This document shows, in pieces, positions 3,234-43,624 of a stretch of 64,000 bases of DNA; the first letter of the stretch is position 1; every line of letters starts with the position of its first letter. The stretch lies in contig PABP01000009.1 of NCBI GenBank assembly GCA_002699585.1, forward strand, positions 419,750 to 483,749, written 5' to 3'. The notes under the pieces are model-generated. The model did no database searches. It was not told the DNA's origin and was given only the letters and a program-made list of their open reading frames with translations. A program made the translations under genes and the position numbers. The DNA is from Anaerolineaceae bacterium. Lineage in GTDB: Bacteria > Chloroflexota > Anaerolineae > Aggregatilineales > Phototrophicaceae.

Positions 3234-3314
3234 TTGGCTTGTTGTGTCGGGCTTTGCCCTTTATGCTTAATAGAACCTGTCACTCAAAAGTTGTTTTCCA
3301 AAGAGGGGATACTC

Positions 3315-4493: not shown

Positions 4494-4590
4494 TTCAAGC
4501 GGGTGTTCAAGAACGTGTATATGGATACAAAACGCCTCTGGCCTGTGGTAAGGTAGCGGCGTTTTCTGTTTGATAGATGGAGCGTGTGAC

Positions 4591-27931: not shown

Positions 27932-28025
27932 AAATTCTTCTACAAGGGCTGTTGCTGAATAAATAAGGTTCTGTTTCCTATCATAGCACAAAGATTTTCA
28001 AGCATTCGAGGACTTATGCCCCAGC

Positions 28026-28359: not shown

Positions 28360-29253
28360 CTAAGCGACACAACAGTATGCGATGGCGAGTTTCTTCTTGA
28401 TCTTCTTCCGGTAGTAGAAGATCATCTTGTGTTCTTTCTCGTCGCGGGCGAACTTCTTCACCTTTGCCTTGGTGGTCAGCGTGTAAATCGCAAACAGTGC
28501 CAGTGGACGATCCGAGTAGTGTTCGACCACCTGGAGATACGGTTCGATCTCGCCTGCATCGAGTCGTTCCTGCCAGGTGCGTGGCTGGATCATCGGCTCG
28601 TACTCCTTCAGGATGCGCTGAAGCCGGTGCTTGATCGCTGTCATACGCTCGTAGACCATCGAGTGCGCCAGATTATGCGCTTCCAGTGCCGCCTTCGAGT
28701 CAACACTGGTCGTCAGGATGTAGAGCGCGACCAGTTCCTTAATGTCGTCAGCGTATTCTTCGGCAATGGCGTGGATCGCGTCGGTAATGTCCAGCCGGAA
28801 GTCAATCTTCGTTGCCCACGGTGCCCAGCGTTCCGAGGACTTCTGCCAGGCGGTGGGGGATGAGTAGCCCGGAATGCCGTACTCGTCCACGTCCAGCGCC
28901 AGCTCACCTTCGATATCAGTGAAGGGGAGATACTTCTTGTTTTGCTTCTGAAGCGTGGTGGACTTGCTGATCGCCAACGCACGCCACATCGCCCCAAAGA
29001 TACCGACATCTGCCAGCAAGTTCGGGTCTTCGACCAGTCGCATCCACAGACGCATCAGCCCGGTCTGGATGCTGTCGGGGATATCCTGGCCATAGTTGCC
29101 AAAACGCTTCAGTTTGTTCGCCATCATCGGCGACAGGCACTCTGCGATCTCCTCGAAGGTGAGGTCGCCACCCCAGCCTGTCGGATAGCGCGGCGTGTGC
29201 GGAAATGGCTCGATGGACTCACGGATTTTGCTACGGGTTGTTGCTTCAGACAT
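28360..29253 (-). CDS. sigma-70/ECF-like protein, island 2 paralog
   Basis: Collinear with 16283-17179 (PTGWGG, GQDIPDSxQTGLMxLW, LVALYILTT...). Confidence 0.45.
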   Translation of the reverse strand: MSEATTRSKIRESIEPFPHTPRYPTGWGGDLTFEEIAECLSPMMANKLKRFGNYGQDIPDSIQTGLMRLWMRLVEDPNLLADVGIFGAMWRALAISKSTTLQKQNKKYLPFTDIEGELALDVDEYGIPGYSSPTAWQKSSERWAPWATKIDFRLDITDAIHAIAEEYADDIKELVALYILTTSVDSKAALEAHNLAHSMVYERMTAIKHRLQRILKEYEPMIQPRTWQERLDAGEIEPYLQVVEHYSDRPLALFAIYTLTTKAKVKKFARDEKEHKMIFYYRKKIKKKLAIAYCCVA

Positions 29254-29490
29254 GACGAAACCTCCTCGTCAAACCGGAAATCCGTCCGGCTGGCGGCTGA
29301 GCACAACGCTCAACCTGCCGGGGACGGCGCAGAGGAGGGGACCTGTCAAACAAAAAAGCCGACCAGATTGGTCAGCTTCTCATGATTTCAATTTGTGGTC
29401 GGCTTTTTAGGCGGATGGTTCGGTGGTCCCGTCCGCAGGATGGTACCAGCGTATCAGCCGCCGGTGTTTGATGGGGTGGATGCCCGCGCC
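29254..29490 (-). promoter_or_regulatory. conserved leader of sigma-like gene carrying an extra intrinsic-terminator hairpin (29353-29410)
   Basis: AAAAAAGCCGACCA...TGGTCGGCTTTTT, with a U-run on the gene (minus) strand. This hairpin is absent from the island-1 copy. Confidence 0.4.
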
Positions 29491-29608
29491 GTATGATCGC
29501 CGCGCGGCGGTGTGCGAACTTCAATTATTCTATGCAATAAACTTGTCTGAATTGACCTGGGGATGCTAATATTCATTAAAGGTAAAGTGAGCTAGAAGTA
29601 GGTTTTAG

Positions 29609-31156
29609 ATGGGCAATGGGACTATAGCCCTTGGAATTGATCTGGGCACAACAAATTCTGTTGTTGCTGTCGTAAATGAGCAGGGTGTGCCTGAGGTTAT
29701 ACCCAATAGTGAGGGTGAGCGATTGACTCCTTCATCTGTTCATTTTGATGGTGACAATATTGTAGTAGGACAATTTGCGAGAGATGCGCTGAGAGTTGAT
29801 CCAGACAATGTAGTTATGTTCGTCAAAAGACAGATCGGCAATCCGACTTGGCATGTGCAATATGATGGGAAGGAACATACTGCGATTGATGTTTCGGCTT
29901 TGATTCTTGAGAAACTCAGAAAGGATGCGGAACAGGCATTGAATATGTCCATCAATTATGCTGTCATCACTGTTCCAGCTGATTTTGATGATGCGCGACG
30001 ACGTGCAACAGAAACAGCAGCTACGATCGCGGGAATGAAAGTCCTGTGTTTAATCAATGAGCCTACGGCTGCTGCGATCGCGTTTGGCGCTAATCGTAAA
30101 GGTGATAAGAAAACTGTACTCGTTTACGACCTAGGTGGTGGTACCTTTGATGTTACTTTGATGATGATTGAAGGTGATAAGATTCGTGTTCTTGCTACAG
30201 AAGGCCAGCAACTTTTAGGTGGAAAAGATTTTGACGACCTGATTATCAAATATGCTGTCCAGGCATTCCAAGCTGAGCATGGCTTCGATCCAACAGCAGA
30301 AGAATATGTCGCAGCAGAATTGAGAGAACAAGCCGAAAAAGCCAAACGTGAGTTAAGTAAACGCAGCAGCACGATCCTTGTCATTGGGGCAAAGGGTAGG
30401 ACAACACGGACCTCGCTCACAAAAGAACAACTGGATGAGTTTATTTCATCAAAAGTAGATAATACTTTTATTCATATTCGAAATGTTCTAGAACATAGCA
30501 AACTTGCTCCAGAAGATGTTGATCAGGTTATACTTGTTGGCGGGTCAACACGTTTGCGGATTGTGCGCGAAAAATTAGCCGAGTTTTTTGGAAAAGACCC
30601 CGATGCTTCTATCAACCCAGATGAAGCTGTAGCACTTGGAGCAGCTATTGTCGCCGCTCGTGAATTAGCTGAAATAGAACCCGAGGCACTTTCAGAAACT
30701 GTACATGAGGTTGTTGGCGGATTACAGGTATCTGATGTGCTTTCTCATTCGTTGGGAATAGGCACCTTCGTACCCGGTACGAACCGTCCCTTCAATTCCA
30801 TTATGCTAGCTCGAAATACTCCCATCCCAAAAGAAGAATCCAGGATATTTCCAACTACCACGGCCAACCAAACGGCAATTAAGATAACTATATATCAGGG
30901 CGAATTTGATGATCCATCACTGTGTAATCCTGTGGGCGAATTTTTGCTTAAAGGCTTACCCCCAAACAGACCGGTAGGGAAAAAAGTTCGCATAACGATA
31001 TCTTGTAATACAAATGGGATGGTCGAGGTTCAAGCCACAGATATTGAGACCGGCTTGCAGGCCGAGACTGTAGTTAACTATAGTCAAGGATTGTCTCAGG
31101 ACGAAATCGCTGACAAGCAGAGCTGGCTGAAAAAGAAGACGAAGACCATCCTCTAG
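29609..31156 (+). CDS. Hsp70-family ATPase lacking the C-terminal helical lid (HscC-like)
   Basis: IDLGTTNSVVAV, DLGGGTFDVTLM, VILVGGSTRLRIVREKLAEFFGKDPDASINPDEAVALGAAIVAA. SBD-beta present, ends at 515 aa. Confidence 0.9.
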   Translation: MGNGTIALGIDLGTTNSVVAVVNEQGVPEVIPNSEGERLTPSSVHFDGDNIVVGQFARDALRVDPDNVVMFVKRQIGNPTWHVQYDGKEHTAIDVSALILEKLRKDAEQALNMSINYAVITVPADFDDARRRATETAATIAGMKVLCLINEPTAAAIAFGANRKGDKKTVLVYDLGGGTFDVTLMMIEGDKIRVLATEGQQLLGGKDFDDLIIKYAVQAFQAEHGFDPTAEEYVAAELREQAEKAKRELSKRSSTILVIGAKGRTTRTSLTKEQLDEFISSKVDNTFIHIRNVLEHSKLAPEDVDQVILVGGSTRLRIVREKLAEFFGKDPDASINPDEAVALGAAIVAARELAEIEPEALSETVHEVVGGLQVSDVLSHSLGIGTFVPGTNRPFNSIMLARNTPIPKEESRIFPTTTANQTAIKITIYQGEFDDPSLCNPVGEFLLKGLPPNRPVGKKVRITISCNTNGMVEVQATDIETGLQAETVVNYSQGLSQDEIADKQSWLKKKTKTIL

Positions 31157-31349
31157 GTGACAAATGTCATTGTTTATTAGGTTTCTGGCTGCATCCAATT
31201 CATGACAAAAAATCGTCCTAAAAACTTTGCTAGGATGCGATTCTCATATTATATTTATCTTGTGGGTTACTCTTGCGTGTGTACCGTAAGGCACATCAAG
31301 AATAGAAAGATGTGTTAACATGTAAAGAATTAGAATTAAGGCTACAAAG

Positions 31350-32651
31350 ATGCCCAACAATCGCCATCTAATCATTGACGAAGAACTGGTTCGTCCGCAA
31401 CAGCTTCTTGATAGAGGTTGGCCCATACCTGGTTTGGGGGGGAAACATCGGGTCGATCAAGGATGGTGCGCTGTCATCACGGTCGGTGGTGCTTATGAAG
31501 AGACTCTCGAACCCGGATTTTACGATATCAGCAAGTATCCTCGCCAGGATGTTCAGGCAATTCATGTCGATAAACGTCTCAAGCAGCTCACAGTAGCAAC
31601 TACACGCGAGTTCACGATCGCACGTCCCTTCCCCGTAGAAGTCGATCTTACACTGTCAGTAGAATATCGCGTCTCTGATCCCAGACGAGTAGCAGTCGAA
31701 ATTGAAAGCCCATTGACCAGCCTCTATGATCGTGTCCTTCAGGCGGTCAGAGGTGCAGTTGTGCATGTCGATTATGAGGAGTTTCGTACACAAGGGGAAC
31801 GGCTCGCACAGATCACGCTGGATCGGCTAAAAGCAATGCGCCTGCCAGATGTATTGGGGATCGACATCTTCAACGTTTTGGTTACGACCATCAAAGGAGC
31901 GGGTGAAGTCGCCAAGCGCATCCAGCATGAATGGGAGACTTTGCGCGATTGGCAGATGAACGCTCACATGGTGCAGAATTCGCAGATTACGCCACAATGG
32001 ATGGCAGTCAATGCGCCTGAACTCTACCAACAACTGATGGCAAATAATCATGAAGTGCGAATGGCTTTGATTGATATGGGACTTCTCGGACCTCAGGGCT
32101 TTCTCAATCAACCCGCTAATGCAAGCGGGACATTCGATGTCCAAAGTTTTATGAATACTTTGCCACCGGGCATGACATCTCCACAAGGACAAGTATTTTC
32201 CCCTTATGGACAGAACCAACCATCATTCCAACAGCAACCGCCACAGCTACAACAGCCAGCACAGACTCAGCATACACATGGCGTTGCACAACCGCAACAG
32301 AGTACTGATCCACTCGCACGTATTCGCGAAGAAGTAGAGTATCTTAAAAAACTCTCGAATGTCGTGGTGAAAGCTGAGGCATGTGAAGGTGAGGATGGCC
32401 TGCCTGACGGGACTTACATTCTTACTGTTCAGTTGAAAAGAACAGCAGATACCCCAGTTGTACTTGTGATTTATTGTCCAGAGGGGTTTCCCGATACAGC
32501 ACCTGAGGCAAGTGTGTTCTTCAGCGATGATGAAGCGGTGTTAAACGATCCTTCACAAGGGAAACCCTTCCAGTCGGGAGTCATGAGGAGATGGGCACCA
32601 TCCAACTATATTGTCGAAATTGCGCGTGAAGTGCGCGAGTTCTATGGATAG
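31350..32651 (+). CDS. SPFH/band-7 (flotillin/stomatin-like) domain protein with Q/P-rich linker and C-terminal possible E2/UEV-like domain
   Basis: GWCAVITVGGAYEETLEPGFYDI...VEYRVSDPRRVAVEIESPLTSLYDRVLQAVRGAV...LGIDIFNVLVTTIK follows the SPFH pattern. C-terminal VVLVIYCPEGFPDTAPEASVFF resembles the E2/UEV fold signature. Confidence 0.55.
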   Translation: MPNNRHLIIDEELVRPQQLLDRGWPIPGLGGKHRVDQGWCAVITVGGAYEETLEPGFYDISKYPRQDVQAIHVDKRLKQLTVATTREFTIARPFPVEVDLTLSVEYRVSDPRRVAVEIESPLTSLYDRVLQAVRGAVVHVDYEEFRTQGERLAQITLDRLKAMRLPDVLGIDIFNVLVTTIKGAGEVAKRIQHEWETLRDWQMNAHMVQNSQITPQWMAVNAPELYQQLMANNHEVRMALIDMGLLGPQGFLNQPANASGTFDVQSFMNTLPPGMTSPQGQVFSPYGQNQPSFQQQPPQLQQPAQTQHTHGVAQPQQSTDPLARIREEVEYLKKLSNVVVKAEACEGEDGLPDGTYILTVQLKRTADTPVVLVIYCPEGFPDTAPEASVFFSDDEAVLNDPSQGKPFQSGVMRRWAPSNYIVEIAREVREFYG

Positions 32652-32664
32652 GTGGTGATCGATC

Positions 32665-33426
32665 ATGAGTTTGGAACCCAATTACTATGATGTTCTGAAA
32701 ATACCACGCCATGCAACAGATCAGGAAGTAGAAGTCGCATTTCATGAACTATCAGATCAGTTAAAATCACTGGTGTCAACTGGGAGTGAGTTCGAAAGTG
32801 CTGAAGCAAGTCAACAACTTCAATTGGTTGATGATGCTTATCAGACGCTTCAAGGTGAAATACGGCGCAAGCAGTACGATTCTCAGCTTGATGGCTCGGA
32901 CCCTGACGTGCTGACGCCTGAATTAAGTATCGACAAAGCCCGAAAACAAACTGCAATCACAACTACGCCATCTCAAAATAGAACAGCCTACTGTGCAAGC
33001 TGTGGTGCTCATCTGCCTGAGAAAAGCATGGTCTGCATGAATTGTGGGGCAAGAGCACCTCAACTTGTTACATCCGAGATGCAGTGCCCATATTGCCGTA
33101 GTCAAGTCCCAGCAGGAAGCATGACATGCCTAACTTGCGGAGAGCAGGTTAGCCGTTTATGTCCTCAGTGTGGAGAGGCTATAGCATTAGGTGAAATAAT
33201 TTGTGGGCGATGTGGTACAAATATTCAGGACTATGACCGACGCCGATTTGGACAAGCAGAAATTATAAAACGTGAATTTGATAAGGAACGTGCAGAAGAT
33301 GCAGTTCGTGTGGAGAGTCAGCGGAGAATTCTCGCTTCACTTGATAAACAGGCAAGAGAATTCTGGTTTGTGGTAATTGGCTTAATAATTTTAACTATAA
33401 TTATCTTGTCGATGACCAATGGATAA
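32665..33426 (+). CDS. membrane-anchored multi-zinc-ribbon protein with degenerate J-domain-like N-terminus (no HPD)
   Basis: NYYDVLKIPRHATDQEVEVAFHEL... then five CxxC pairs and a C-terminal TM helix FWFVVIGLIILTIIILSM. Confidence 0.5.
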   Translation: MSLEPNYYDVLKIPRHATDQEVEVAFHELSDQLKSLVSTGSEFESAEASQQLQLVDDAYQTLQGEIRRKQYDSQLDGSDPDVLTPELSIDKARKQTAITTTPSQNRTAYCASCGAHLPEKSMVCMNCGARAPQLVTSEMQCPYCRSQVPAGSMTCLTCGEQVSRLCPQCGEAIALGEIICGRCGTNIQDYDRRRFGQAEIIKREFDKERAEDAVRVESQRRILASLDKQAREFWFVVIGLIILTIIILSMTNG

Positions 33427-34057
33427 AATTGATCACACCCATGCTGAAGCTCGCTGGCAATGCATTGACTGCGGATATGAGAATGTAACTGGTACAGATT
33501 CTTGCTCGGTTTGTGGCAGTCCAAAGCAGATTAACTGCTTGAATTGTAGATCACTCATTGATGCAGGGACAATCGTTTGTCCAACATGCGGCATAGACAT
33601 TACAAAGTATTCTTCTGCTTATGAACATTTGACAGCTAATTTCGTACTTGAAGTTGATGCTGATCGTGAAAAGTGGAAACAAAGTCAAGATGAACGAGTT
33701 GAACGTGAAATTGCATCTTCTTACGCGAACGCAAAACGTAGGACAGTACAAGCCCTTGTGCTATTTGGCGTCCTATTCGTAATTTTGATGACACTCTTCG
33801 TTGTTCGGCAAATAAGGGAACAAGAAAAGCAGGCAATGTTGTCGCGAGAATATGAAGCCGCTGCGAACTGTTTAGGAGAACACGACTACAACTGCGCTCG
33901 CGACCACTTACGTTATGTGCTGTCTGTTGAACCTGACTATCGCGATGCTTCAGAACTTCTAGAAGTCGTATACAACGATTGGATTGGTGAAGCGACTAGG
34001 CAGGGAGACATAGGGCTTGTCATCTCACTATTGGCTGAACGGACATTTTGGGATTAG
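33419..34057 (+). CDS. zinc-ribbon membrane protein with C-terminal TPR-like region
   Basis: WQCIDCGY...CSVCGS...CLNCRS...CPTCG. TM helix ALVLFGVLFVILMTLFVV. Confidence 0.5.
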   Translation: MDKIDHTHAEARWQCIDCGYENVTGTDSCSVCGSPKQINCLNCRSLIDAGTIVCPTCGIDITKYSSAYEHLTANFVLEVDADREKWKQSQDERVEREIASSYANAKRRTVQALVLFGVLFVILMTLFVVRQIREQEKQAMLSREYEAAANCLGEHDYNCARDHLRYVLSVEPDYRDASELLEVVYNDWIGEATRQGDIGLVISLLAERTFWD

Positions 34058-34089
34058 GAAAAGACTAAAGCAAGGGAAAGGAGATCCCC

Positions 34090-35079
34090 ATGCAGCAAAC
34101 ACAAAACTACTATGAAGTTCTACAGGTGGATCAAACCGCCGGAATGAATGAAATCGAGGAGGCATATCGTCGAGAATACAACAAGTGGTCTAAACTGATC
34201 AATCATCATGACCCTGATATGCAGGACAGCGCTCGAAAGAACCTGCGCCTTATCGAGGCTGCCAAAACAACATTGCTGGACGCATCTAAACGGTCTGAAC
34301 ATGACAGTGCGTTGGCATCAGGGCTTTATGATGAATCGGCGAAGCCAAATCTAACTGCTGTGGCGGGTATGCCCGTGATGACTCCACCGCCACCTCAGAA
34401 ATCATCCAAGAAGGAATCACCAACACTCAAGAATGCGTGGGAATGCACTGATTGTGATACCGTAAACTCTCCCGGTACGATGTATTGTATTTCCTGTGGT
34501 ACTCAACTAGGGAAGAACTGTCCAGAGTGTGGACACACACTTCCTGTCAGTGCCGAGTTCTGCACGAACTGTGGTGTCAATTTCCAGCAACGTGAGTGGG
34601 AGATTGAGCAAGATCAAATTGCAGCAGAGAAAGCAGCACGGCAACAGATGCAGAATTATTTCCAGTATGTACGCTCAATCCCGATGCATCGCCACAAAAA
34701 GGTCAGAGAAGAACTGGAAGCACATCCTGAGTACTCGCAGACAAGCGAAGCCATCAATTTGTATGAAGCGGCAAAACAAGAAGGGTCAAAGTGGACTTGG
34801 ACTCTTATTGGTATTTCAGCCGCTATTTCGGCATTTGCCGGGCTTGTTTTGGGCAGTACTGGACGTAATCCTGATGGGGGTTCAGGTTTGCTATTCGGTG
34901 CAGTGCTTGGAGCAATTGGTGGGGCGATATTTGGTCACTGGTGGGGTGGCAAGTGGGGAGGTGAGAGTGGACAGCCTCTAGATGCTATTCTCGCTGTCTT
35001 GACAGGGCCATTTCTGCTCGTCTTTGGTATTTTCATTCTTGTAATTGTTGGTTTTGTGATGTTTGCTGCTGGGGGATAA
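34090..35079 (+). CDS. J-domain-like / zinc-ribbon membrane protein with glycine-zipper C-terminal TM region
   Basis: NYYEVLQVDQTAGMNEIEEAYRREYNKWSKLINHHDPDMQ (HxDPD in place of HPD). CxxC pairs. GxxxG-rich TM helices. Confidence 0.5.
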   Translation: MQQTQNYYEVLQVDQTAGMNEIEEAYRREYNKWSKLINHHDPDMQDSARKNLRLIEAAKTTLLDASKRSEHDSALASGLYDESAKPNLTAVAGMPVMTPPPPQKSSKKESPTLKNAWECTDCDTVNSPGTMYCISCGTQLGKNCPECGHTLPVSAEFCTNCGVNFQQREWEIEQDQIAAEKAARQQMQNYFQYVRSIPMHRHKKVREELEAHPEYSQTSEAINLYEAAKQEGSKWTWTLIGISAAISAFAGLVLGSTGRNPDGGSGLLFGAVLGAIGGAIFGHWWGGKWGGESGQPLDAILAVLTGPFLLVFGIFILVIVGFVMFAAGG

Positions 35080-35085
35080 ATCTGT

Positions 35086-35640
35086 TTGGAGGTAGAACTC
35101 AAGATTAGTAGATCTACATTGAGCAGGTTGATCGTGCTTGGTTCCGTCTTACTGCTCAATATCGGAATTCTGACGTTGGGCAGCCGTCTAGAGGAAAACT
35201 CTGGTGCCAGCTATGGGGGGTTGTTTGTTCTGGCTTTCCTATTTAACTCAACTGTGTTGCTACCCTCCCCAATCCTTACCATAGTTGGCGCGATGAGTTT
35301 GTCTTTGCCTCCCTTGTGGGTTGGGTTAGTCGCTGGGGTTGGCTCTACACTGGGTGAGCTTGTAGGCTATACGGCTGGAGCAAGTGGAAGAGAGTTAGTT
35401 GATGGGCATGTAGGAGAGAGGCTGCGTAGTTTGATTGAACGTGGAGGAGGAGCAACCGTTTTTCTTGCAGCATTTACACCGGGGCCAGTATTCGACTTTG
35501 TTGGCATTGCAGCAGGGGCATTACGTTTTCCGCTAGGTCGATTTATCTTCTTCTGCGGGATGGGAAAGATACTAAAAATGATTTTATTTGCTTATTTAGG
35601 CGAAAGACTATTTTCAACTTTGTTGGAGTTTATCAAATAG
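35086..35640 (+). CDS. DedA/VTT (SNARE-associated, TVP38/TMEM64) family membrane protein
   Basis: Polytopic with GY...G motif region VGSTLGELVGYTAGASGRELV...FTPGPVFDFVGIAAGALRFPLGRF. Confidence 0.65.
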   Translation: MEVELKISRSTLSRLIVLGSVLLLNIGILTLGSRLEENSGASYGGLFVLAFLFNSTVLLPSPILTIVGAMSLSLPPLWVGLVAGVGSTLGELVGYTAGASGRELVDGHVGERLRSLIERGGGATVFLAAFTPGPVFDFVGIAAGALRFPLGRFIFFCGMGKILKMILFAYLGERLFSTLLEFIK

Positions 35641-35644
35641 AAAG

Positions 35645-35905
35645 GTGATCGACATGGCACGCTTTGAATACATGATGGTACAAGTACCTCCGACAATTCC
35701 GAAGTCGAAAGGAGCGAGCGGCAGCGAGGCTGCATCCTATTTGCAGTCGATAGTAAACGAACATGCTACAAAAGGCTGGGAGTTCTATCGAGTTGATTCA
35801 ATTGGAGTTGTTTCCGATCCAGGTTGTTTAGGAGCTTTGCTTGGGCAGAAACAAACCATTATCGAGTATTATGTAGTCACCTTCCGTAAACAACAAGGCG
35901 GATAG
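35645..35905 (+). CDS. DUF4177-like small protein
   Basis: FEYMMVQV...VNEHATKGWEFYRVDSIGV pattern. Confidence 0.4.
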   Translation: MIDMARFEYMMVQVPPTIPKSKGASGSEAASYLQSIVNEHATKGWEFYRVDSIGVVSDPGCLGALLGQKQTIIEYYVVTFRKQQGG

Positions 35906-35993
35906 CAACGAAGCTAACTTTGGCTTGCAGATGTTTGATGGGGGTTGGTACTTCACCAGCCCCAGTAGTTATTGATTAATAGTCGGGGGACCG

Positions 35994-38915
35994 ATGAAGA
36001 TTCCCTATATTTATATCTCAGACCGAGAATTGATTCGTGTCCCTGTTGAATATGATAATCAACAAGGTGTGCGATATGAAGACGTTGGCGGTGAACACGC
36101 AATTTGGATTGCTCGCGTTCCTTTTTTGCCAAGCTTTATGTCTGACGACTTCACACGGCTAGGCAAAGAACGAATAAGAATTATTGTACGGCGACAGTAT
36201 CGCTTTATTTATGATCTATCTCGATCCCGAGAAAATCAGGCAACATTCGAATTACGTTTTGTATCCACGCCAAACCCCATACCTGGGCAACCCAACGCCA
36301 TTGATATGGTGTTTTTAGGTAAAGTGTTCTCACGCCGCCATCGTGGTGGTTTTACCGAAGCCGTCGCACTATGGGATAAGTTTGCTGCAAATTTCCCACT
36401 TGAGGATCCCTTTAATTACCCTCTGGAACCTGTCTCTGAAGAACGATTTCAGCATTTTTATCAGCCTTTTGAGTTCAATACGCTCACTAAGGATAATATT
36501 CTCGAATTACGCAAGTATGAGGACATGCCCGTAACACCTGGAGGAGAGCTTGGACGCCAAGCCCGCAAGGGTGATTATATCGTTCATCCATTTGTACCCA
36601 GCACTGATTTCAACCCTATGGGACGATTCTTTGAGGCATTGGCTGTTCAGCAGCAGAAATGCTTTGCTTCGATTAGTTTGCGTCCGACCTCTCTGTTCCC
36701 ACAGGAGATACAGAATGTCAGTTTCCAGATAGGACAATTTCGCAAAGATGCGGCAGAGAATGATGAGGCGACAGAAGAATATATTCGGACTCGTTCGATC
36801 ATTGGATTGAAGGTCTATCAGCGATTAATGATGGAACGTGAGCACTTGCTTATGGTCCGCGTTCACGTCGTGGGTGAAAATCACGCACCTTATGCTGTGG
36901 CGGAAGCACTTGGCTCGGAGATGATGGATAATGGTCGTAACGAATATCCTACACAATGGAACAACGTTCAACCATCTACACCAAATGAACTTGAATCTGC
37001 TATACATAACTTGCGATGGCTAGAACACGATCTGTGGGGAGAGACTAAAGCTGTTCCACAGCTGGAACGTCTCAGGTATCTTGCTAGCGCATCTGAAGCG
37101 TCCGGAGCCTTCCGACTTCCTGTTCCTTCCGAAAGTGGATACATGCCAGGTGTACTTGTAAAGAGTGAGCCGTTTGTAGCACCGGCTGATTATCTCGAAA
37201 GTGACTCTGATGAAACAATTGATACAAGTGAAGCCAGATCAGAAGGGAATATTGATCTTGGCTATATATACCATCGCGGAAAATCGACCGCACAGAAATT
37301 CACAATTCCAGTAAGCGATTTTACTCGTCACACGTTGATTGCGGGATCGACAGGAGCGGGTAAGACGACCACCATAATGAGCATTCTAGCGCAAATGTGG
37401 AGTAAACATCGTATTCCATTTATGGTCCTGTATCCTATTGACAAAACTGATTATCGTGAACTGCGCCATTTCGGTGATTTGAAAGAAAATCTTTTAGTGT
37501 TTTCGTTGGGTGACGAAACAACTTCGCCTTTTCGGTTCAATCCATTCGAAGTACCAGAAGGAATGCTCCTCAAAACTCATCTGAGTCGCTTGATGAGGGT
37601 TTTTTCTGCTGCCTTTAGTCTGATGGATCCGCTACCCATGATCTATCGCGATGCCCTACGACGAGTGTATCGAAATCTTGGTTGGAACCCAGTCATTGAT
37701 CGCGGACAACCGGGCAGACAATATCCGGTCATGAGTGAGTTTCATTCCACAATCGATGAGATTACGAATGAGTTGAATTATGGTCGAGAAGTTCAGGATA
37801 ATGTACGACAGGCTTCTGTTATTCGCATCGGCGATCTCCTAGAAAATGCTGGTTATGTTGTCAATGTTCGTGAATCAATGCCCATATCGAGAATAATGCA
37901 ATATCCAACAGTGATGGAAATTGGTCGAGTTGGATCAATGGCTGATACAGCTCTTCTAATGGGCTTCCTTTTAATGCGTTTGGCAGGTGAGATTGAAAGA
38001 AATCCACGTCCCAGACATATGCCACATATCACAGTTGTCGAAGAAGCGCACAGATTGATGTCAGAAGTCTCGACAAATGGACAAGAAACAGGAGATCCGA
38101 GAAGTAGTGCTGGTGAGGATTTCAGTAATATACTTGCAGAGGTGCGCGGCTTTGGCGAAGGAATCATTATCGCCGAACAAATTCCGACTTTGCTGGTCAA
38201 AGGCGCGATTGGAAACACGTATATAAAGGTAATGCACTGGTTAGAAGATGTTCCCAGTTATGAGCTGTTTTCAAATGTTATGAATCTGAACGATCAGCAG
38301 CGTGAGTATGCTCGTACCTTGCAGGCAGGTCATGCCATTGTTCGTAGCCCTTTTGGACGCCCAGTTCACATCAAGATTCCAAGAATTACGGAACAACAAG
38401 CTGATAACTCTGACAAAGCTATTGCAGAACACATGGCCGAGCAACGTACTAAACTGGACATTAGAGCATCCAACATCATTGAATGGACTTCATCGATTTC
38501 AGCTAACACCGAAATCCGTAAGTTGCAGCTAGTTACGGTACAGAAGGCCGTTTCTGCTCGGATTTTGGATGCACCAATGCAGACTTGTGCTCACTGTATT
38601 CCATTGCTCAGCGAAGGAAAATGTCCTTATCGAAGTCAAGCCAAGCCGATGGTAGATTCCAAGGAATTCGCAAAGTGGGCTGAGTTGATTGATCTCACTA
38701 GTGAATTAGAAGATCCTCCAGCACGTTGGACAAACCTCTCTCAAATAGGGCGGAGGCTATTCGGAAAGGGAAATCCGGGGCAGTTTTACTGCTTACTGGC
38801 GCATCTAGCGGATCGTGCACAAAAGCTGGCGAGGGATGATGCTTCTAGTTTTGAAATGCGGTATCAACGTTATAGAAATATTTTAAACGATTTCCAGACT
38901 AACTATGAAAGGTAA
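35994..38915 (+). CDS. HerA/FtsK-superfamily (DUF87-like) ATPase, 973 aa, with large unique N-terminal region and C-terminal Cys cluster
   Basis: Walker A LIAGSTGAGKTTTIMSIL, Walker B-like ITVVEEAHRLM, FGEGIIIAEQIPT. CAHCIPLLSEGKCPY near the C-terminus. Confidence 0.8.
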   Translation: MKIPYIYISDRELIRVPVEYDNQQGVRYEDVGGEHAIWIARVPFLPSFMSDDFTRLGKERIRIIVRRQYRFIYDLSRSRENQATFELRFVSTPNPIPGQPNAIDMVFLGKVFSRRHRGGFTEAVALWDKFAANFPLEDPFNYPLEPVSEERFQHFYQPFEFNTLTKDNILELRKYEDMPVTPGGELGRQARKGDYIVHPFVPSTDFNPMGRFFEALAVQQQKCFASISLRPTSLFPQEIQNVSFQIGQFRKDAAENDEATEEYIRTRSIIGLKVYQRLMMEREHLLMVRVHVVGENHAPYAVAEALGSEMMDNGRNEYPTQWNNVQPSTPNELESAIHNLRWLEHDLWGETKAVPQLERLRYLASASEASGAFRLPVPSESGYMPGVLVKSEPFVAPADYLESDSDETIDTSEARSEGNIDLGYIYHRGKSTAQKFTIPVSDFTRHTLIAGSTGAGKTTTIMSILAQMWSKHRIPFMVLYPIDKTDYRELRHFGDLKENLLVFSLGDETTSPFRFNPFEVPEGMLLKTHLSRLMRVFSAAFSLMDPLPMIYRDALRRVYRNLGWNPVIDRGQPGRQYPVMSEFHSTIDEITNELNYGREVQDNVRQASVIRIGDLLENAGYVVNVRESMPISRIMQYPTVMEIGRVGSMADTALLMGFLLMRLAGEIERNPRPRHMPHITVVEEAHRLMSEVSTNGQETGDPRSSAGEDFSNILAEVRGFGEGIIIAEQIPTLLVKGAIGNTYIKVMHWLEDVPSYELFSNVMNLNDQQREYARTLQAGHAIVRSPFGRPVHIKIPRITEQQADNSDKAIAEHMAEQRTKLDIRASNIIEWTSSISANTEIRKLQLVTVQKAVSARILDAPMQTCAHCIPLLSEGKCPYRSQAKPMVDSKEFAKWAELIDLTSELEDPPARWTNLSQIGRRLFGKGNPGQFYCLLAHLADRAQKLARDDASSFEMRYQRYRNILNDFQTNYER

Positions 38916-38923
38916 ATGGGATC

Positions 38924-39235
38924 ATGTTCGAAAGGCCCAGATTTCGTCCAGAGCATGAACTGAGAAAAGAAGATAACGACAATCCCCAGCCATCTAGTTC
39001 TTCGGATGTAGACTTATCAGGGAATTTCGTGGAGCGTAAACGCGACCCAAGTGACGACGTGGGATCTGATACACCTGTTTCACAATATGACCAAACCGAT
39101 GAACATATAGAGAATCCTGATTTAACTTGGACGGACGAAGATGAGTCGTTATTTGATGAAGTTCAGAAGCTACGTTCCGAACAAGCGCAAGATATCAAAG
39201 AGGATGCGGATGCCCTTGATGATAAGTTCAAATAA
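38924..39235 (+). CDS. small acidic low-complexity protein with DLTWTDEDESLFDEV motif
   Basis: Starts 9 nt after the HerA-like stop. Paralog of the next gene. Confidence 0.45.
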   Translation: MFERPRFRPEHELRKEDNDNPQPSSSSDVDLSGNFVERKRDPSDDVGSDTPVSQYDQTDEHIENPDLTWTDEDESLFDEVQKLRSEQAQDIKEDADALDDKFK

Positions 39236-39272
39236 ATAAAAAGACATTTAGCCCGCAAGGTGAGAAATTGCT

Positions 39273-39605
39273 ATGAGCGATTGGCGTAAGGCAGCAAAAA
39301 TCGGGTTGACCGCTGCGGACATGTGGTGGCAAATCAATGGACATCCATTAGGAGAATTGCCTGATGCATATTCACATCTTGAAAGTCAGCAGCACGATCA
39401 AAATACAGCCCAAATGACCGAACTTAGAGATGCTATTCAGAGTGAAAGTGATCGTCCAGCCGAGTATCGAGATTATGAAGATGAATCGGGTGACCACATT
39501 GATACTGTAGATTTGAGCTTTACCGATGAGGATGAGGCTCTCTTTGCCGAAGTTGAAGCGGCTATTGAAGATCAAAGCTCTTTGTCTGAACAAAAAGATG
39601 AGTGA
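39273..39605 (+). CDS. small acidic protein paralog with DLSFTDEDEALFAEV motif
   Basis: Shares the TDEDExLFxEV C-terminal motif with the preceding gene. Confidence 0.45.
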   Translation: MSDWRKAAKIGLTAADMWWQINGHPLGELPDAYSHLESQQHDQNTAQMTELRDAIQSESDRPAEYRDYEDESGDHIDTVDLSFTDEDEALFAEVEAAIEDQSSLSEQKDE

Positions 39606-39634
39606 GCTTAGGGCGCAATAATGTAATGTTCGAA

Positions 39635-39733
39635 GCGTCACAGGTGTCACAACCGTCACAGGCACAAAGAGCGTGCCTGTGATTGCTTTTTGCGGTCTAT
39701 TTGGTCTGCGTCTCAGGTGTCACAGCCGTCACA
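39635..39733. repeat. GTCACA-rich repeat cluster B (CGTCACAGGTGTCACAACCGTCACAGG and GTCACAGCCGTCACAG)
   Basis: The first block is non-coding. The second overlaps the last codons of the Rep gene (encoding DCDGCDT). Confidence 0.6.
39656..39691 (+). terminator. rho-independent terminator of the Hsp70-HerA operon
   Basis: CACAGGCAC-AAAGAGC-GTGCCTGTG 9-bp stem followed by ATTGCTTTTTG. Confidence 0.65.
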
Positions 39734-42688
39734 GTCCAGAATCTCGGACTTGAGTTGCCATAATCGCACTCTACCGCCTCTAACCCTGCGCTGAACCGTC
39801 AGATTGAGGTTTCCAGGCAACAAGAAACCATCCTCCTTGAGCATCTTGCCGATGACATTGGCACCGAAGTTAAGCGGCTGGACGTGGTTCACAGCCTTGA
39901 GTGCGATCTCCGGCAGCAGGTAGACGAAGTTGTCGTCCTTATAGCCAACTACCGTTACACCGGGCGGGTACTCACGCGGATTGCGCATGTCATCGTCAAT
40001 GACCGCCTGCCCACCGGCGAGCAGCTGACCCAGGATGTCCAGAAAGACCTGACTGGCAAGCTCCTGGCGCAGATTTTGTACGGTCTCCACGATGCTGTCC
40101 TGCCACGTCGGGAGCAGATAGTCCTCCTCCATCTCCGCGACAAACTTCGAGAGCATCTGGAAAACCGTCACCAGCACTGCCCAGTTCTTCACGGCGCGGT
40201 CGTGTGCGTTCGATTTGCCGAGCTGCGCGGTTACTTTGGCGTTGTAACCGATCACGTTCTGACTGAAGCGGCTGGCAAGTTCAGCTTTGAAGTCACCATC
40301 ATCGAGCTGGCGTGCCACCCATGATGCAAAGTGGGCAGTGAAACCGGGCAGCTTATCGCGCAGCGCCTCAGCTTCGGCGAGTGCCTTACCCTGCGGATCA
40401 CGGTGCTTCCAGGGTGGGATTTCGAGTGCCATCATGCGCGAGGACACCGACATCTCGCCTTCCAGGCTGGTTTCACCAGTGGAGAGGATCAATCCCCGGC
40501 ACGGGCGAGACGTTTGCAGCTTGGCATCCCGTGTCAGCCGACCGCGACCGAGGTTACGCGAGTATCCCTGCAAGAAACGGGTGAACGTGCGGGTGTCGGC
40601 GTAGATGTCTTTGTAATCGTCCACCCAGTAAAGCGCGTCCGCCAACGGATAACCGAGCATCTCGACGGTGTTGATGGTGACGCCCCACTGCGCAGGCGGC
40701 GTATCACGGCTGAACTGTCCATAGAAGCTGCTCAACAGCGATGCGATTTCCGATTTGCCGCTACCCGATGTGCCGACCAGATGGATGGCTGGCCGCGTCG
40801 CCGACGGCGGGAAAAAGCGCTGGATCACCGGCAGTAGCGCGAAAGCAATCAGCGAGGGTGCCAGATTCGACGGCAGTACCTTTGCCACTGCATCAAATGC
40901 CCGCAGACTTTCGTCCCAACTGACCGCCTGCAAGCCGTAGTCGCGGAGGCGCTGGTCGAGTTCGACCGATGGTGGTTCCGCCAGCTTGCCCTTTGCGGTG
41001 ATGCAATCTTCAGGGGAGACATAGACCCATCTGCCGTCGATCTGCTTCCAGCCCATGAAGTTGTAGTGGCGATGGGTCGGAAACTCGCCCGACAGATGCA
41101 CGATGGCGGGAACCAGGTGCTTCGACATGCCTGCCCGAACGACGTACTGCGCTCCGGCGTTGGCTCCGATGAAGCGGCGCAGCGCGACATCATCGACGAA
41201 TACCTCACCGGGCACTTCCAGCTTTTTGGTCGATGATCCCCGCTGCAATTCGATGGTCGTGACGTGCGCTTCCTTGCCGTCATCATCAACCTGGCAGGTC
41301 TGATAAAGTGCGGTGGCTGCCCAATCGGTGACGGTACGCTCGGTCGTACCGCGATACGTCTCCTTGCGATAAACAATCTTGCCGTCCAGCAACAGATAGC
41401 TCTCGGTATCGACATATTCCTGCTGCCGCTGGCGCTCGATTGACTTCCGTTTCTCCCGGTACAGCTTGTCGATGTCACTGATTTTCAGTCCATCACCAGT
41501 GATTGCTTTGAACTTCTCGCGCTGTTCGGCCCATTCAACCGCATTGAGAGAGGCGCAAGCCTCCACCGCTTCGATGATCTCGGCGGTGGATGGTCTTTCA
41601 ACCGATTTCTGCCGCGTGTCGTAGCGATCCACCAGTTGGCTGACGTACGCCTCCGCGACTTGCCGTCGCGACTGAATCGCCTCGCGTGGCGGCTGGCTGA
41701 ACGCACTGGCGATAGTGGCGCGTGCCTCTTTCTCGCGTGCGGTGGCATTCTCACTACCATCTCCATCAGCCATGTAGCGACTGACCAGTTCTCGTTCTGC
41801 ATCGGACTGGCTGTAACCCGCATCACGTAACTGGCAGGCGGCGGCGAACAGTTCATGATTGCGGTTGCCATTGACTGCACCGGACGAAAGATAGCTCTCG
41901 GTACGCGGTGGTATTGGCGCGTTTCCATCGAGTGTCACGACATTGAGGTTGCCTATGCGTTCCACTTTCGGTCGCGGCTTGACTTCCAGCCAATCGAAGC
42001 ATTCCAACGGGTAGCGCCGATCCGGATGCCATTCCGTGATCTGAACCGCTGCGCCGTCGCGGTCAGGCTTGGTGTTGATGCTGCCCGGCAAGCGCATCAC
42101 GGATGCCACCGATTTCACATAGCCCTCGTCACCACCGAGTGCCGTGAATACGCCCTGCATCACGCGCCCGATTTTCTGCTTGTTTTCCTCGTCGAGTGAT
42201 AGCGGCTCATCGAGCAGCCAGTAGCCGTGCCAGCCGCCTCCGCTGGACACTACAATAGAAGGAGGCGTATCGAAGCCTTTTAGTCTTTCCAGATCGCGTT
42301 CCCTATTTTCCTCCGGGCCGTCGATGTCAATCCAGAGCGCGGGCAACAGTGCTGCCGATGCCGCGTTACCTTTCTTACCCGAACGGAGGCAGGGTGCGAA
42401 GTACACGCCATAGCCCTCGCCGTTGAGCGTATCTGCCTGCTTCAGCACGGCGTCGCGCTGTTTCTCGTTCCCGATTTGCGTCCAGAGGGCACGGACTTCG
42501 CCCGTTACCGGATGGATGCAGCGCAGTTCCAACCATAAATCAGCGGGGGCGTTTGGATATAGCGCAGAGAGAAAAGTGTCTCTGCCCGCGTTTTCGTCGT
42601 TGGTCGATTCGTGTTTCTGTGTCATACTATTTGTATTCCTTATGATGTACACAGGGGCTTGGGGTGAAACGTTTGGTCGCGATCTCAC
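39713..42688 (-). CDS. replication protein: archaeo-eukaryotic Prim-Pol domain fused to D5-like SF3 helicase/P-loop NTPase
   Basis: GVYFAPCL, ALWIDIDGP, SGGGWHGYWLL, RLPGSINTK (Prim-Pol). Walker A LVGTSGSGKSEI and YWVDDYKD. Confidence 0.85.
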   Translation of the reverse strand: MRSRPNVSPQAPVYIIRNTNSMTQKHESTNDENAGRDTFLSALYPNAPADLWLELRCIHPVTGEVRALWTQIGNEKQRDAVLKQADTLNGEGYGVYFAPCLRSGKKGNAASAALLPALWIDIDGPEENRERDLERLKGFDTPPSIVVSSGGGWHGYWLLDEPLSLDEENKQKIGRVMQGVFTALGGDEGYVKSVASVMRLPGSINTKPDRDGAAVQITEWHPDRRYPLECFDWLEVKPRPKVERIGNLNVVTLDGNAPIPPRTESYLSSGAVNGNRNHELFAAACQLRDAGYSQSDAERELVSRYMADGDGSENATAREKEARATIASAFSQPPREAIQSRRQVAEAYVSQLVDRYDTRQKSVERPSTAEIIEAVEACASLNAVEWAEQREKFKAITGDGLKISDIDKLYREKRKSIERQRQQEYVDTESYLLLDGKIVYRKETYRGTTERTVTDWAATALYQTCQVDDDGKEAHVTTIELQRGSSTKKLEVPGEVFVDDVALRRFIGANAGAQYVVRAGMSKHLVPAIVHLSGEFPTHRHYNFMGWKQIDGRWVYVSPEDCITAKGKLAEPPSVELDQRLRDYGLQAVSWDESLRAFDAVAKVLPSNLAPSLIAFALLPVIQRFFPPSATRPAIHLVGTSGSGKSEIASLLSSFYGQFSRDTPPAQWGVTINTVEMLGYPLADALYWVDDYKDIYADTRTFTRFLQGYSRNLGRGRLTRDAKLQTSRPCRGLILSTGETSLEGEMSVSSRMMALEIPPWKHRDPQGKALAEAEALRDKLPGFTAHFASWVARQLDDGDFKAELASRFSQNVIGYNAKVTAQLGKSNAHDRAVKNWAVLVTVFQMLSKFVAEMEEDYLLPTWQDSIVETVQNLRQELASQVFLDILGQLLAGGQAVIDDDMRNPREYPPGVTVVGYKDDNFVYLLPEIALKAVNHVQPLNFGANVIGKMLKEDGFLLPGNLNLTVQRRVRGGRVRLWQLKSEILDCDGCDT

Positions 42689-42712: not shown

Positions 42713-43624
42713 TCAAAAGTCAATCGTCGGACGCAGTTCTTCATCACGCTGGATGTTTTTTGCGTCTGCTTGCAGTCGTTCCTTCATGTATTCAGCGGCT
42801 CTCTCCGCTTCACTGTGTTCCAGACCAGGCATGAGTGGACGGAATTGCAGTTTCAAACGTCCCTCCCGATCCTCAAACCAACCATAAAAGCCTGCCGCGC
42901 TGGTATTCTCATCCGTACGACGGATACCTGCCCAGACCGGATCACCACCCCACATACCATGCGCTTCCTCTATAATGGCAATCTGTTCCTGTTGCTCACG
43001 GATTGTCGCGAGTTCGTCGTAACGCTGTTCCCAGTCGCGTCCTGCATATCTGTCCATAAGCTCTGCCATCTGCTCCTGCGTGATGTCGTGTAGCAGGTCG
43101 ATATGATTGACCTCCCGATTACGCGAAAAATATAGCGGTTTGCGTCGTCCCTCATCGGCATCGTAGTAGGTTCCAGGCAGGACAACATGCGTATGCGGAT
43201 CATGCTGATTGGGCGATTCTTCCCCATCGGTATTTCGGTGATGCGTGACATATGAATATTCAACGCCTGTATCAATCCCACGTGCATCAAAGAAACCTTC
43301 AACGGTGCGCTCAGTCAATTGCTTTACAAATGCCTCACGCTCCTCATGGGGAACCATGCGAATCAGGTCGGGATTCGGATTCACAACAAGGCTGAACAGC
43401 AGAACATGATCGCTCTGGTAGCCCTCGCAGGTATTGGCAATCTGTGTCACGGATTTGCCCATGCCGTGATCGACCCAGCGTTCCACGCCACTGACCTGCG
43501 GCACATAGTCGTCGCGGCTGTCACGGTAGGTCAGATAGCTGAGCAGGTTCTTCATCCGCCGCGCCTCGTTCTGCGTCGGCTTCTTGTACTTCACATTGGT
43601 CACGCACATCTGCTTTCTGTCCAT
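42713..43624 (-). CDS. putative relaxase / mobilisation nuclease
   Basis: HHRNTDGEESPNQHDPHTHVVLPG three-His motif (HxDxxxPHxHvv) plus N-terminal Tyr-containing region. Confidence 0.45.
   Translation of the reverse strand: MDRKQMCVTNVKYKKPTQNEARRMKNLLSYLTYRDSRDDYVPQVSGVERWVDHGMGKSVTQIANTCEGYQSDHVLLFSLVVNPNPDLIRMVPHEEREAFVKQLTERTVEGFFDARGIDTGVEYSYVTHHRNTDGEESPNQHDPHTHVVLPGTYYDADEGRRKPLYFSRNREVNHIDLLHDITQEQMAELMDRYAGRDWEQRYDELATIREQQEQIAIIEEAHGMWGGDPVWAGIRRTDENTSAAGFYGWFEDREGRLKLQFRPLMPGLEHSEAERAAEYMKERLQADAKNIQRDEELRPTIDF

Follow-up and report, generated by a model that had tools for sequence, protein, structure and literature searches.

A mobile cassette of Chloroflexota joining a lid-less Hsp70, zinc-ribbon J-proteins, an SPFH-RWD protein and a VirB4-like ATPase: a candidate membrane-associated conflict system

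Among the published systems, the nearest to the one analyzed here are the Hsp70-like CnuD of CoCoNuT, the GTPase-Hsp70-GrpE-DnaJ systems, the HerA/FtsK and the BREX (bacteriophage exclusion)-related capture systems, and HscC with DjlB and DjlC, all of which differ in their core parts. HscC measures 550-580 amino acids and keeps a shortened helical lid (PMC8215388), and its J-proteins are membrane-anchored, belong to class C and have a non-canonical HPD triad, which reads HPE in DjlB and DjlC (PMC10410713). Chaperone-based regulation of conflict in filamentous bacteria was described by Kaur et al. (2020; PMC7159879) for ternary and GTPase-centric systems, one theme of which is Hsp70 and GrpE with DnaJ-fused FNIII proteins. 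The published descriptions of defence systems anchored on a HerA/FtsK ATPase mention neither SPFH nor Hsp70. Here, we describe a cassette in a stretch of 64,000 nucleotides from an Anaerolineaceae bacterium (GenBank assembly GCA_002699585.1, contig PABP01000009.1, positions 419,750 to 483,749 of the forward strand), and "the window" denotes this whole stretch. At positions 29609-39605, the listing of open reading frames (ORFs) gives ten genes on the + strand, with exactly the limits and orientation reported by a first-pass annotation made from the sequence. They encode a lid-less Hsp70, an SPFH protein with an RWD/UEV-like domain, three zinc-ribbon membrane proteins (J1, ZnR2 and J3), a DedA-family protein, a DUF4177-like protein, an ATPase of the FtsK-HerA superfamily and two acidic proteins (Table 1).

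The window copy belongs to a family of loci. Full-length homologues of its ATPase form more than 200 clusters at 40-62% identity, almost all of them from Chloroflexota. A scan for loci, restricted to one genome for each species, yielded 38, of which about 27 have full-length relatives and come from Anaerolineae, Ardenticatenia, Chloroflexia, Chlorohelix and one cyanobacterial metagenome-assembled genome (MAG). The carriers in Chloroflexia include the cultured Oscillochloris trichoides DG6 and Chloroploca. Of the 24 loci whose flanks permit a judgement, 23 have the SPFH gene adjoining the ATPase gene, and the invariant core consists of the SPFH protein with its RWD/UEV-like domain, the ATPase with its N-terminal domain (N-domain) and an acidic disordered protein. 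The gene order recurs in dozens of loci, and the linkage is therefore not unique to the window.

Two main arrangements are built around this core. Type A (Anaerolineae, at least 12 complete loci) follows the order Hsp70 - SPFH - J1 - ZnR2 - one or more J3 - ATPase - acidic protein; in Hsp70-type loci the J1 gene always comes directly after the SPFH gene, and ZnR2 is conserved after J1. The 3' end of type A loci usually holds a protein of ~195 amino acids with an invariant VHEGRHAYQ (HExxH) motif, together with a protein of ~110 amino acids. The HExxH protein is present in 13 loci, is fused to an acidic N-terminus in two of them (L014 and L017), and its profile has no significant match among PDB sequences. 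Type B (L019, L022, L023, L025, L031, L046, L055) follows the order extra RWD proteins - E2 - JAB - E1 - SPFH - ATPase - acidic protein, occurs in loci of the Chloroflexia type and some others, and is the version found in Oscillochloris trichoides DG6. The type B genes match PADLOC models of the type used for the cyclic-oligonucleotide-based anti-phage signalling system (CBASS; E2 2e-21, JAB 4e-15, E1-E2 3e-39), and no CBASS cyclase or effector gene was found in type B locus L022. The front end is interchangeable: either Hsp70 and J-proteins or E2-JAB-E1 precede the same SPFH-RWD/ATPase back end. Both the E2-JAB-E1 front end and the HExxH protein of the sister loci had been overlooked in the first-pass annotation. 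Further variants are given in Table 1; in one of them, L054, no Band_7 gene was called upstream of the ATPase.

The Hsp70 belongs to its superfamily by the motifs of its translation (GIDLGTTNS, DLGGGTFD, NEPTAA and LVGGSTR), and it indeed lacks the helical lid, as first proposed: the Pfam match covers profile positions 2-509 of 599, and the protein aligns to DnaK residues 5-512 and stops ~15 residues past the beta part of the substrate-binding domain (SBD-beta). Since its best 120 homologues all measure 510-538 amino acids, we consider it a member of a dedicated lid-less Hsp70 clade. The initial assignment to the HscC type had to be abandoned. By BLASTP against the E. coli proteins the window Hsp70 is nearer to DnaK (36% identity, 296 bits) than to HscC (33%, 229 bits), its top NCBIfam matches are the DnaK and HscA models, and its lid is absent altogether, unlike that of HscC. 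A further deviation concerns the position of DnaK R167, the arginine which pairs with the Asp of the HPD motif. This tripeptide lies between J-domain helices II and III and is required to stimulate the Hsp70 ATPase. The window Hsp70 has a Cys in place of R167, and D, G, K or E predominate at this position in the clade.

On the side of the J-proteins, the count of three J-like proteins is reduced to two: J1 and J3 exceed the Pfam DnaJ cutoff of 27.8 bits, while ZnR2 gives no match to this model and has zinc ribbons only. The HPD region is non-canonical in both, as had been noticed. J1-type domains have no HPD motif in the alignment, and J3-type proteins have THHDP at its position, conserved among the paralogues, with HPD in rare paralogues only. 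The HHDP motif together with the replacement of R167 suggests that the Hsp70-J interface is re-wired or non-stimulatory. The J3 paralogues share a layout of J-domain, double zinc ribbon, basic stretch and transmembrane (TM) segments, the latter at residues 236-258, 263-282 and 296-329 in the window protein. Their C-termini vary from a PD40 propeller (1.4e-62) or an FGE-sulfatase domain (1.8e-29) to BACON and glycine-rich domains with 2-6 TM segments, and the J3-type proteins of L054 end in LysM or SH3. The gene is present once in the window and in up to at least eight tandem copies elsewhere (L007, L053). The J-proteins give the impression of an array of receptors facing the envelope and undergoing diversification. 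The tandem expansion and the variable ectodomains had gone unnoticed before. A large survey of J-proteins removed sequences without HPD (PMC10410713), and the HHDP family would therefore have been missed there.

The second building block of the core is the SPFH protein, for which the original SPFH/band-7 call is supported by a Band_7 score above the cutoff (23.6 bits) and by structure: in Foldseek the SPFH domain and the following helices match HflK/C, stomatin and prohibitin (E 4e-10 to 5e-7, 218-290 columns). Its AlphaFold2 (AF2) model (pLDDT 75) contains the SPFH domain, long helices, a disordered Q/P-rich linker and an alpha-beta4-alpha domain with helices at residues 321-333 and 421-432 and four strands in between. 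This C-terminal domain, which had been overlooked, resembles the UEV domain of Vps23 (5.5e-3) and UBE2D (1.3e-2) in Foldseek and carries a conserved CPxxYPxxPP motif. The window domain itself scores E=0.13 against Pfam RWD, and a paralogous domain of type B reaches 1e-5; a non-iterated profile of the C-terminal domain retrieves paralogous domains in JAB-containing and other type B proteins (E 6.5e-12 to 1e-4). In one metagenomic homologue (P0216, 705 amino acids) a TIR_2 domain (1.7e-17) interrupts the linker that joins SPFH to RWD, and in P0210 zinc ribbons and a membrane tail replace the RWD domain. We know of no other SPFH protein tagged with an RWD/UEV domain. A Kyte-Doolittle scan of the window protein shows no hydrophobic or TM segment, and Pfam finds neither the NfeD nor the FtsH family among the operon products. 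By analogy with the known SPFH cages, it is plausible that the protein forms an oligomeric membrane-proximal scaffold enclosing a partner enzyme.

Of the SPFH-RWD homologues P0121-P0216, 78 of the 92 Anaerolineae-type proteins end in Gly, mostly as -FG or -YG. A role of this terminal Gly as E1 substrate was rejected, as the homologues from E1-containing loci do not share it.

The ATPase shows a Walker A motif GSTGAGKT, a Walker B motif VVEEAH and a helical C-terminal extension with four conserved Cys, and its DUF87/FtsK-type P-loop, recognized by Pfam, places it in the FtsK-HerA superfamily. The earlier label "HerA-like" does not fit, since the HerA models fail (HerA_antiphage 19.9 and HerA_Thermprot 23.9 bits, cutoffs 800; PADLOC HerA match 7e-10) and the nearest structural neighbours are VirB4, including its C-domain, and DndH-C rather than HerA. 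Foldseek of the AF2 model (pLDDT 80) ranks full-length TrwK/VirB4 first, spanning both halves of the protein with low TM-scores (0.3-0.4), and loose sequence matches are obtained to mad8 (3.5e-13), the DNA-translocating ATPase CedD (NCBIfam, 1.6e-12) and the DUF87 protein of PDB entry 8yho (7.8e-12). The possibility of a conjugative-type ATPase, raised at the outset, is borne out to the extent that VirB4 is structurally closest, but the VirB4 model TIGR00929 (VirB4_CagE) fails with 17 bits against a cutoff of 643, and neither VirB3/6/8, VirD4, a relaxase nor any other family of the type IV secretion system (T4SS) is found among the ten operon products. We therefore rejected a known T4SS module. 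No NurA, SIR2 or DUF4297 partner is found among these products either.

The N-domain of the ATPase (~400 amino acids) had been regarded as a unique region. It is a conserved module with many invariant residues and 196 representative clusters among 1.84 billion, which usually stands N-terminal to the same ATPase and sometimes alone or behind TPR or receiver domains. Its profile gives no significant match to PDB sequences, and its fold was characterized through the full-length VirB4 matches only. Distant relatives of ATPases with this domain are found outside Chloroflexota in plasmid-borne three-gene operons of hypothetical proteins, as on the Priestia megaterium plasmid pN447-3.1 (L051, 8276-15201) and on a Hymenobacter plasmid (L052, 6971-11849); the Priestia ATPase is followed by a repetitive acidic protein of 1135 amino acids with 28% Asp plus Glu (D+E).

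An acidic low-complexity ORF lies directly 3' of the ATPase gene in nearly all loci, often overlapping its stop codon, and also in distant relatives from Streptomyces and the Priestia megaterium plasmid. The acidic proteins of different loci cannot be aligned to each other. The two acidic peptides reported for the window, ac1 and ac2, are both present and are weak paralogues (reciprocal phmmer E ~1e-4) that share a motif L[ST][WF]TDEDExLFxEV; TDEDExLFxEV was searched in all loci and is confined to this pair. The DedA call is confirmed by a VTT domain, and the DUF4177 match was seen below its cutoff, in a protein whose orthologue in locus L047 has no recorded domain match. Among all loci examined, however, both genes occur only in the window and in L047, and hence they do not belong to the conserved system, contrary to their original inclusion.

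The cassette is mobile. In L047, a 97%-identical relative, blastn aligns exactly the cassette as delimited in Table 1, with unrelated flanks that carry ISL3 and rve transposases and an extra J3 copy. Because such a similar cassette sits in a different context, the block was acquired as one unit, as had been proposed from its base composition. The dip in GC content is real on computation (45.5% in the operon and 52.6% in the remaining window), and among all 10-kb windows of the stretch the one starting at 29501 has the lowest value, but the surrounding backbone had been overestimated at ~58%; the element around the operon has 51% on its left and 55% on its right part. Transposases are present within or next to several copies of the system. 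In a MAG from Chloroflexia (L033, 6268-12737) the Hsp70, SPFH and ATPase genes are each split into several short ORFs; this apparently pseudogenised copy could fit dispensability, or alternatively reflect sequencing error. An Anaerolineae copy (L048, which is L001/L002 extended, 2400-5153; L001, 14412-20525) is embedded in a BREX-like locus, with an Eco57I/PglX-like methylase on one side, PglZ - PDDEXK_4 - BrxL on the other, and McrBC beyond.

Based on these data, we propose that the cassette family is a membrane-associated conflict (anti-invader) system on mobile DNA, a reading to which we assign a probability of roughly 0.45, slightly short of an even chance. The membrane J-proteins would act as a diversified sensor or adaptor array at the envelope, and their cytoplasmic HHDP-variant J-domains would recruit the lid-less Hsp70, whose J-contact residue would have changed in step. 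ATP-driven clamping by the Hsp70 could then switch the state of the SPFH-RWD oligomeric scaffold at the membrane, a task that ubiquitin-like conjugation and deconjugation would take over from Hsp70 in type B loci. The scaffold would hold or release a hexameric ATPase, and the polymer translocated by this motor would most probably be the DNA of an invader at the site where it enters, with the acidic protein as the alternative. In some lineages variable effectors may follow, such as the HExxH peptidase-like protein, a TIR domain or nuclease-like proteins.

We favour such a conflict role mainly because two switch modules swap before one back end and because the J-proteins resemble diversifying envelope receptors; to our knowledge, E2-JAB-E1-type modules have so far been characterized only as regulators of anti-phage systems. 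It is further favoured by the RWD-like domain that the SPFH protein shares with the type B proteins, by the TIR fusion and the 3' nuclease-like and HExxH genes, and by the mobility of the cassette, with transposases near copies and one copy pseudogenised. The BREX-embedded copy and the McrBC and restriction-modification (R-M) neighbours in the window point in the same direction, as do the neighbours of the ATPase, which include DndH-C, defence HerAs and mad8. Finally, the conserved linkage speaks for it, as does the HHDP/R167 change, which points to a co-evolved Hsp70-J interface. The more specific scheme, in which transmembrane J-receptors signal through the lid-less Hsp70 to a VirB4-like DNA translocase held by SPFH-RWD, as a new immune class with a switch interchangeable with Cap2/Cap3-like conjugation, must be called doubtful; it would make Hsp70 and the J-proteins a signalling device of bacterial immunity instead of a folding machine.

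Several observations weigh against a conflict role. When 94 genes flanking 21 of the loci were scanned by Pfam and PADLOC, no general enrichment of defence genes emerged; the flanks contain mostly housekeeping and signalling genes with almost no PADLOC matches. A defence-island argument is therefore not supported in general and rests on individual loci. PADLOC (v2) recognizes no system in the operon products and gives sub-threshold matches for the ATPase only, with no matches for SPFH, ZnR2, J3, DedA and the acidic proteins, spurious ones for zinc ribbons, and a single marginal one for Hsp70 (PDC-S05, E 0.0068). The window copy has no recognizable effector, and both the HExxH protein and its partner of ~110 amino acids are absent from it. 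The distribution is narrow, in Chloroflexota MAGs, and the LysM, SH3 and PD40 ectodomains as well as DedA fit envelope maintenance equally well.

The strongest alternative is a non-immune role in envelope homeostasis or membrane-protein quality control, where J-proteins with ectodomains that bind peptidoglycan or glycans would report damage to wall or membrane, Hsp70 and an SPFH cage would organize the extraction or turnover of membrane proteins in analogy to HflK/C-FtsH, the ATPase would serve as the motor that unfolds or extracts them, and the HExxH protein would be a protease. The SPFH fold with its coiled-coil helices, similar to the cage-forming HflK/C, stomatin and prohibitin, agrees with this role, and so do the ectodomains (LysM, SH3_3, PD40), a GrpE in one variant, the DedA gene inserted in the window copy, the HExxH protein of 13 loci and the largely housekeeping flanks. 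Nevertheless, we judge it unlikely: its distribution is sparse and uneven, with about 200 clusters in 5.8 billion proteins, and the system travels as a mobile cassette, with a pseudogenised copy in one genome; the CBASS-type E2-JAB-E1 swap and the TIR member would be unexpected for housekeeping proteostasis, and VirB4/DndH-like ATPases are generally not known as protein unfoldases of quality control.

Less probable still is a novel translocation apparatus derived from VirB4 that would secrete proteins or move DNA out of or into the cell. Here, the zinc-ribbon membrane proteins would form the channel and the SPFH ring its scaffold, the substrates would be kept from folding by Hsp70, and the secreted cargo would consist of the acidic proteins, some of which are fused to a toxin-like HExxH domain (as in L014 and L017). 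Such an apparatus would account for the top structural matches of the ATPase to full-length TrwK/VirB4 and the VirB4 C-domain, the CedD match, the persistence of an acidic protein behind the ATPase even in Streptomyces and on the Priestia plasmid, and the residence of the window copy in an integrative element without other recognizable transfer genes. We hold it to be distinctly unlikely given that no T4SS family accompanies the ATPase and its VirB4 score is far too low, that most copies lie outside mobile elements, that the E2-JAB-E1 and TIR associations are left unexplained, and that the membrane proteins are too variable in number and topology for a fixed channel. Chance adjacency of unrelated genes in a low-GC island, which two loose junctions (193 and 88 bp, one with a hairpin) might indicate, is hardly credible, given that the gene order recurs across Chloroflexota classes at 40-60% protein identity, the Hsp70, SPFH and ATPase homologues come from the same contigs and the cassette was transferred in one piece.

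With regard to the operon itself, the junctions first quoted are correct, but the spacing is not tight throughout, with gaps of 193, 88, 37 and 32 bp. The second of these contains a GC-rich hairpin of 9 pairs with a weak T tail (35941-35963), which may be an internal attenuator or RNA-processing site. The terminator expected behind the last gene was found, with a stem of 11 bp and a T-run. Promoter-like sites are no more frequent in the region than in shuffled sequence, no RNA genes were detected when the whole window was scanned with Rfam (at gathering thresholds) and for tRNAs, and megablast of the 10-kb block against plasmids gave no match.

The Hsp70 and SPFH proteins of the window are 100% identical to proteins from a marine Anaerolineaceae MAG. 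The surroundings of the cassette look like an integrated mobile element or island. The view that this element carries McrBC and an R-M system is correct, and two large serine recombinases come in addition, which may delimit or subdivide the element; neither a tRNA gene nor flanking repeats were identified. In the McrB homologue an EVE domain, a reader of modified bases, is inserted ahead of the AAA_5 GTPase module. The split transposase is probably a frameshifted or programmed-frameshift insertion sequence (IS), and the divergent ORF of 297 amino acids just upstream of the cassette could be a regulator. The DUF927 and ParM-like genes (55-58% GC, on the strand opposite to the cassette) are of the replication and segregation type known from plasmids or integrative and conjugative elements. 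As for neighbours in other genomes, a second, different ubiquitin-like system lies directly downstream of a type A copy (L045, 14149-20482) and comprises a GntR-ThiF E1, Prok-RING, YukD(Ubl)-E2, a free Ubl, JAB, FHA and vWA.

Table 1. Coordinates of the cassette, its genes and signals and the neighbouring genes of the window, and composition of variant loci (aa, amino acids; TM, transmembrane; distances refer to the next gene of the operon).
Feature	Position	Strand	Description and evidence	Distance to next gene
Mobile cassette limits	29575..39606	+	single 10,050-bp blastn alignment to L047, 92% identity; lowest-GC 10 kb	
Promoter-like site	29468..29497	+	TTGATG-18-TATGAT, 9/12 matches, upstream of first gene; weak evidence	
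Hsp70	29609..31156	+	515 aa, nucleotide-binding domain and SBD-beta, no helical lid; Pfam HSP70 1.2e-130	193 bp
SPFH-RWD protein	31350..32651	+	SPFH/Band-7, coiled-coil helices, C-terminal RWD/UEV-like domain (aa ~318-433); Band_7 35.5 bits	13 bp
J1	32665..33426	+	J-like domain, 3-4 zinc ribbons, C-terminal TM anchor (aa 229-253); DnaJ 34.1 bits, Zn_Ribbon_1, DZR	8-bp overlap (33419/33426)
ZnR2	33419..34057	+	double zinc ribbon, TM aa 107-133, TPR-like C-terminus; DZR 28.9 bits, weak Fis1_TPR_C	32 bp
J3	34090..35079	+	J-domain, double zinc ribbon, three glycine-rich TM segments; DnaJ 32.6 bits, DZR	6 bp
DedA/VTT-family membrane protein	35086..35640	+	VTT_dom 58.5 bits (cutoff 33.9), five TM-like segments	4 bp
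DUF4177-like protein	35645..35905	+	86 aa, tentative domain call; DUF4177 21.5 bits, cutoff 25	88 bp, containing hairpin
FtsK-HerA-superfamily ATPase	35994..38915	+	973 aa; N-domain aa 1-~400; P-loop domain VirB4/DndH-like	8 bp
ac1	38924..39235	+	acidic, probably disordered, 103 aa, 30% D+E; no family match	37 bp
ac2	39273..39605	+	acidic, 110 aa, 26% D+E; paralogue of ac1	
Intrinsic-terminator-like hairpin and T-run, operon end	39655..39693	+	stem 39655-39683, 11 pairs including 6 GC pairs, then TGCTTTTTGC	
Large serine recombinase	9323-11632	-	Resolvase and Recombinase domains	
McrBC-type restriction pair	12825-16180		EVE-McrB and McrC	
ORF	16283-17179	-	298 aa, no Pfam match	
ORF	17497-19749	+	750 aa, no Pfam match	
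IS transposase	20773-22442		two overlapping ORFs (DUF772 N-terminal part, DDE_Tnp_1_6 C-terminal part)	
Large serine recombinase	22509-24572	-	Resolvase and Recombinase domains	
Type II R-M pair	25191-27991	-	directly upstream of cassette; N6/N4 methylase and BsoBI-like endonuclease, reading frames overlap	
ORF	28360-29253	-	297 aa, no Pfam match; divergent, just upstream of cassette	
DUF927 primase/helicase-like protein	39713-42688	-	991 aa, directly downstream of cassette	
ORF	42713-43624	-	303 aa, no Pfam match	
ParM-like actin	45083-46252	-	ALP_N	
Variant locus L003			SPFH, membrane protein, zinc-ribbon-TM protein, ATPase, acidic protein	
Variant loci L021, L024, L026			ATPase, then two SPFH-like genes	
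Variant locus, Chlorohelix			Hsp70 - SPFH - ATPase - acidic - 1002-aa polytopic protein with two J-domains - nuclease-like	
Variant locus L054	1637-10001		GrpE, 851-aa Hsp70-zinc-ribbon fusion, TPR-LysM, DA1-like, SH3_3 proteins	

If the proposed conflict role is correct, bacteria would employ an Hsp70/J pair to switch a defence motor from the membrane to the cytoplasm side, and the family would represent a natural experiment showing that a chaperone cycle can do the same regulatory work as reversible conjugation. Even without an immune role, the family would be of note as an unusual machine for envelope surveillance, in a phylum that has received little study. In either case, the cultured carrier Oscillochloris trichoides DG6 provides an experimental entry point.

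In line with the initial impression that no such system had been described, our full-text literature searches on combinations of Hsp70, SPFH, HerA, VirB4, RWD and J-domains found no account of this set, and PADLOC v2 contains none. In kind, we rate the family among the multi-gene, switch-regulated conflict-type systems centred on an FtsK-HerA ATPase. Compared to the defence systems anchored on HerA/FtsK (DndFGH, SIR2-HerA/Nezha, HerA-DUF4297, mad8 of MADS and the capture systems; PMC10853773), the profile matches of the window stay far below the thresholds and a SIR2, DUF4297, DndF/G, nuclease or HTH partner is lacking; conversely, those systems have no counterpart of the N-domain, the SPFH-RWD protein, the Hsp70/J front end and the acidic partner. 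The ATPase differs from VirB4 of T4SS by its extra Cys-rich helical C-terminus and the lack of T4SS partners. The SPFH domain and the following helices match those of the SPFH cages (HflK/C-FtsH, QmcA-YbbJ/NfeD, stomatin, flotillin), yet the window protein has no predicted TM or hairpin anchor and no FtsH or NfeD partner, and its family adds a disordered linker and the RWD/UEV-like domain, once with an inserted TIR.

Similar to HscC with DjlB and DjlC, the window has a dedicated non-DnaK Hsp70 encoded beside membrane-anchored J-proteins, and HscC and the window Hsp70 both have a deletion of DnaK residues ~76-101 (PMC8215388). Unlike HscC, which keeps R167, the window Hsp70 has neither a lid nor an equivalent of this residue, its J-proteins carry zinc ribbons and HHDP, and it is accompanied by SPFH and ATPase partners that HscC does not have. 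The theme of chaperone-based conflict regulation is common to the systems of Kaur et al., and so are variable domains of the FGE-sulfatase type and adaptor domains shared between components, but those systems centre on MoxR-vWA or GAP1-type GTPases and have no SPFH, RWD scaffold, VirB4-like ATPase or zinc-ribbon J-proteins (PMC7159879). As in CBASS type II, with Cap2 (E1-E2) and Cap3 (JAB), the sister loci carry E2, JAB and E1, here upstream of SPFH-RWD/ATPase, and by analogy reversible conjugation would be the means by which these control the machinery encoded downstream; unlike CBASS, they have no CD-NTase, cyclic-nucleotide effector, SAVED or CARF. The window does not contain this CBASS-type module, and Hsp70 and the J-proteins occupy its place. 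In summary, no domain family of the system is new in itself; the novelty lies in the way they are combined, in the clade of lid-less Hsp70s, in the J-domains with HHDP, in the fusion of SPFH with RWD and in the ATPase branch that carries the N-domain.

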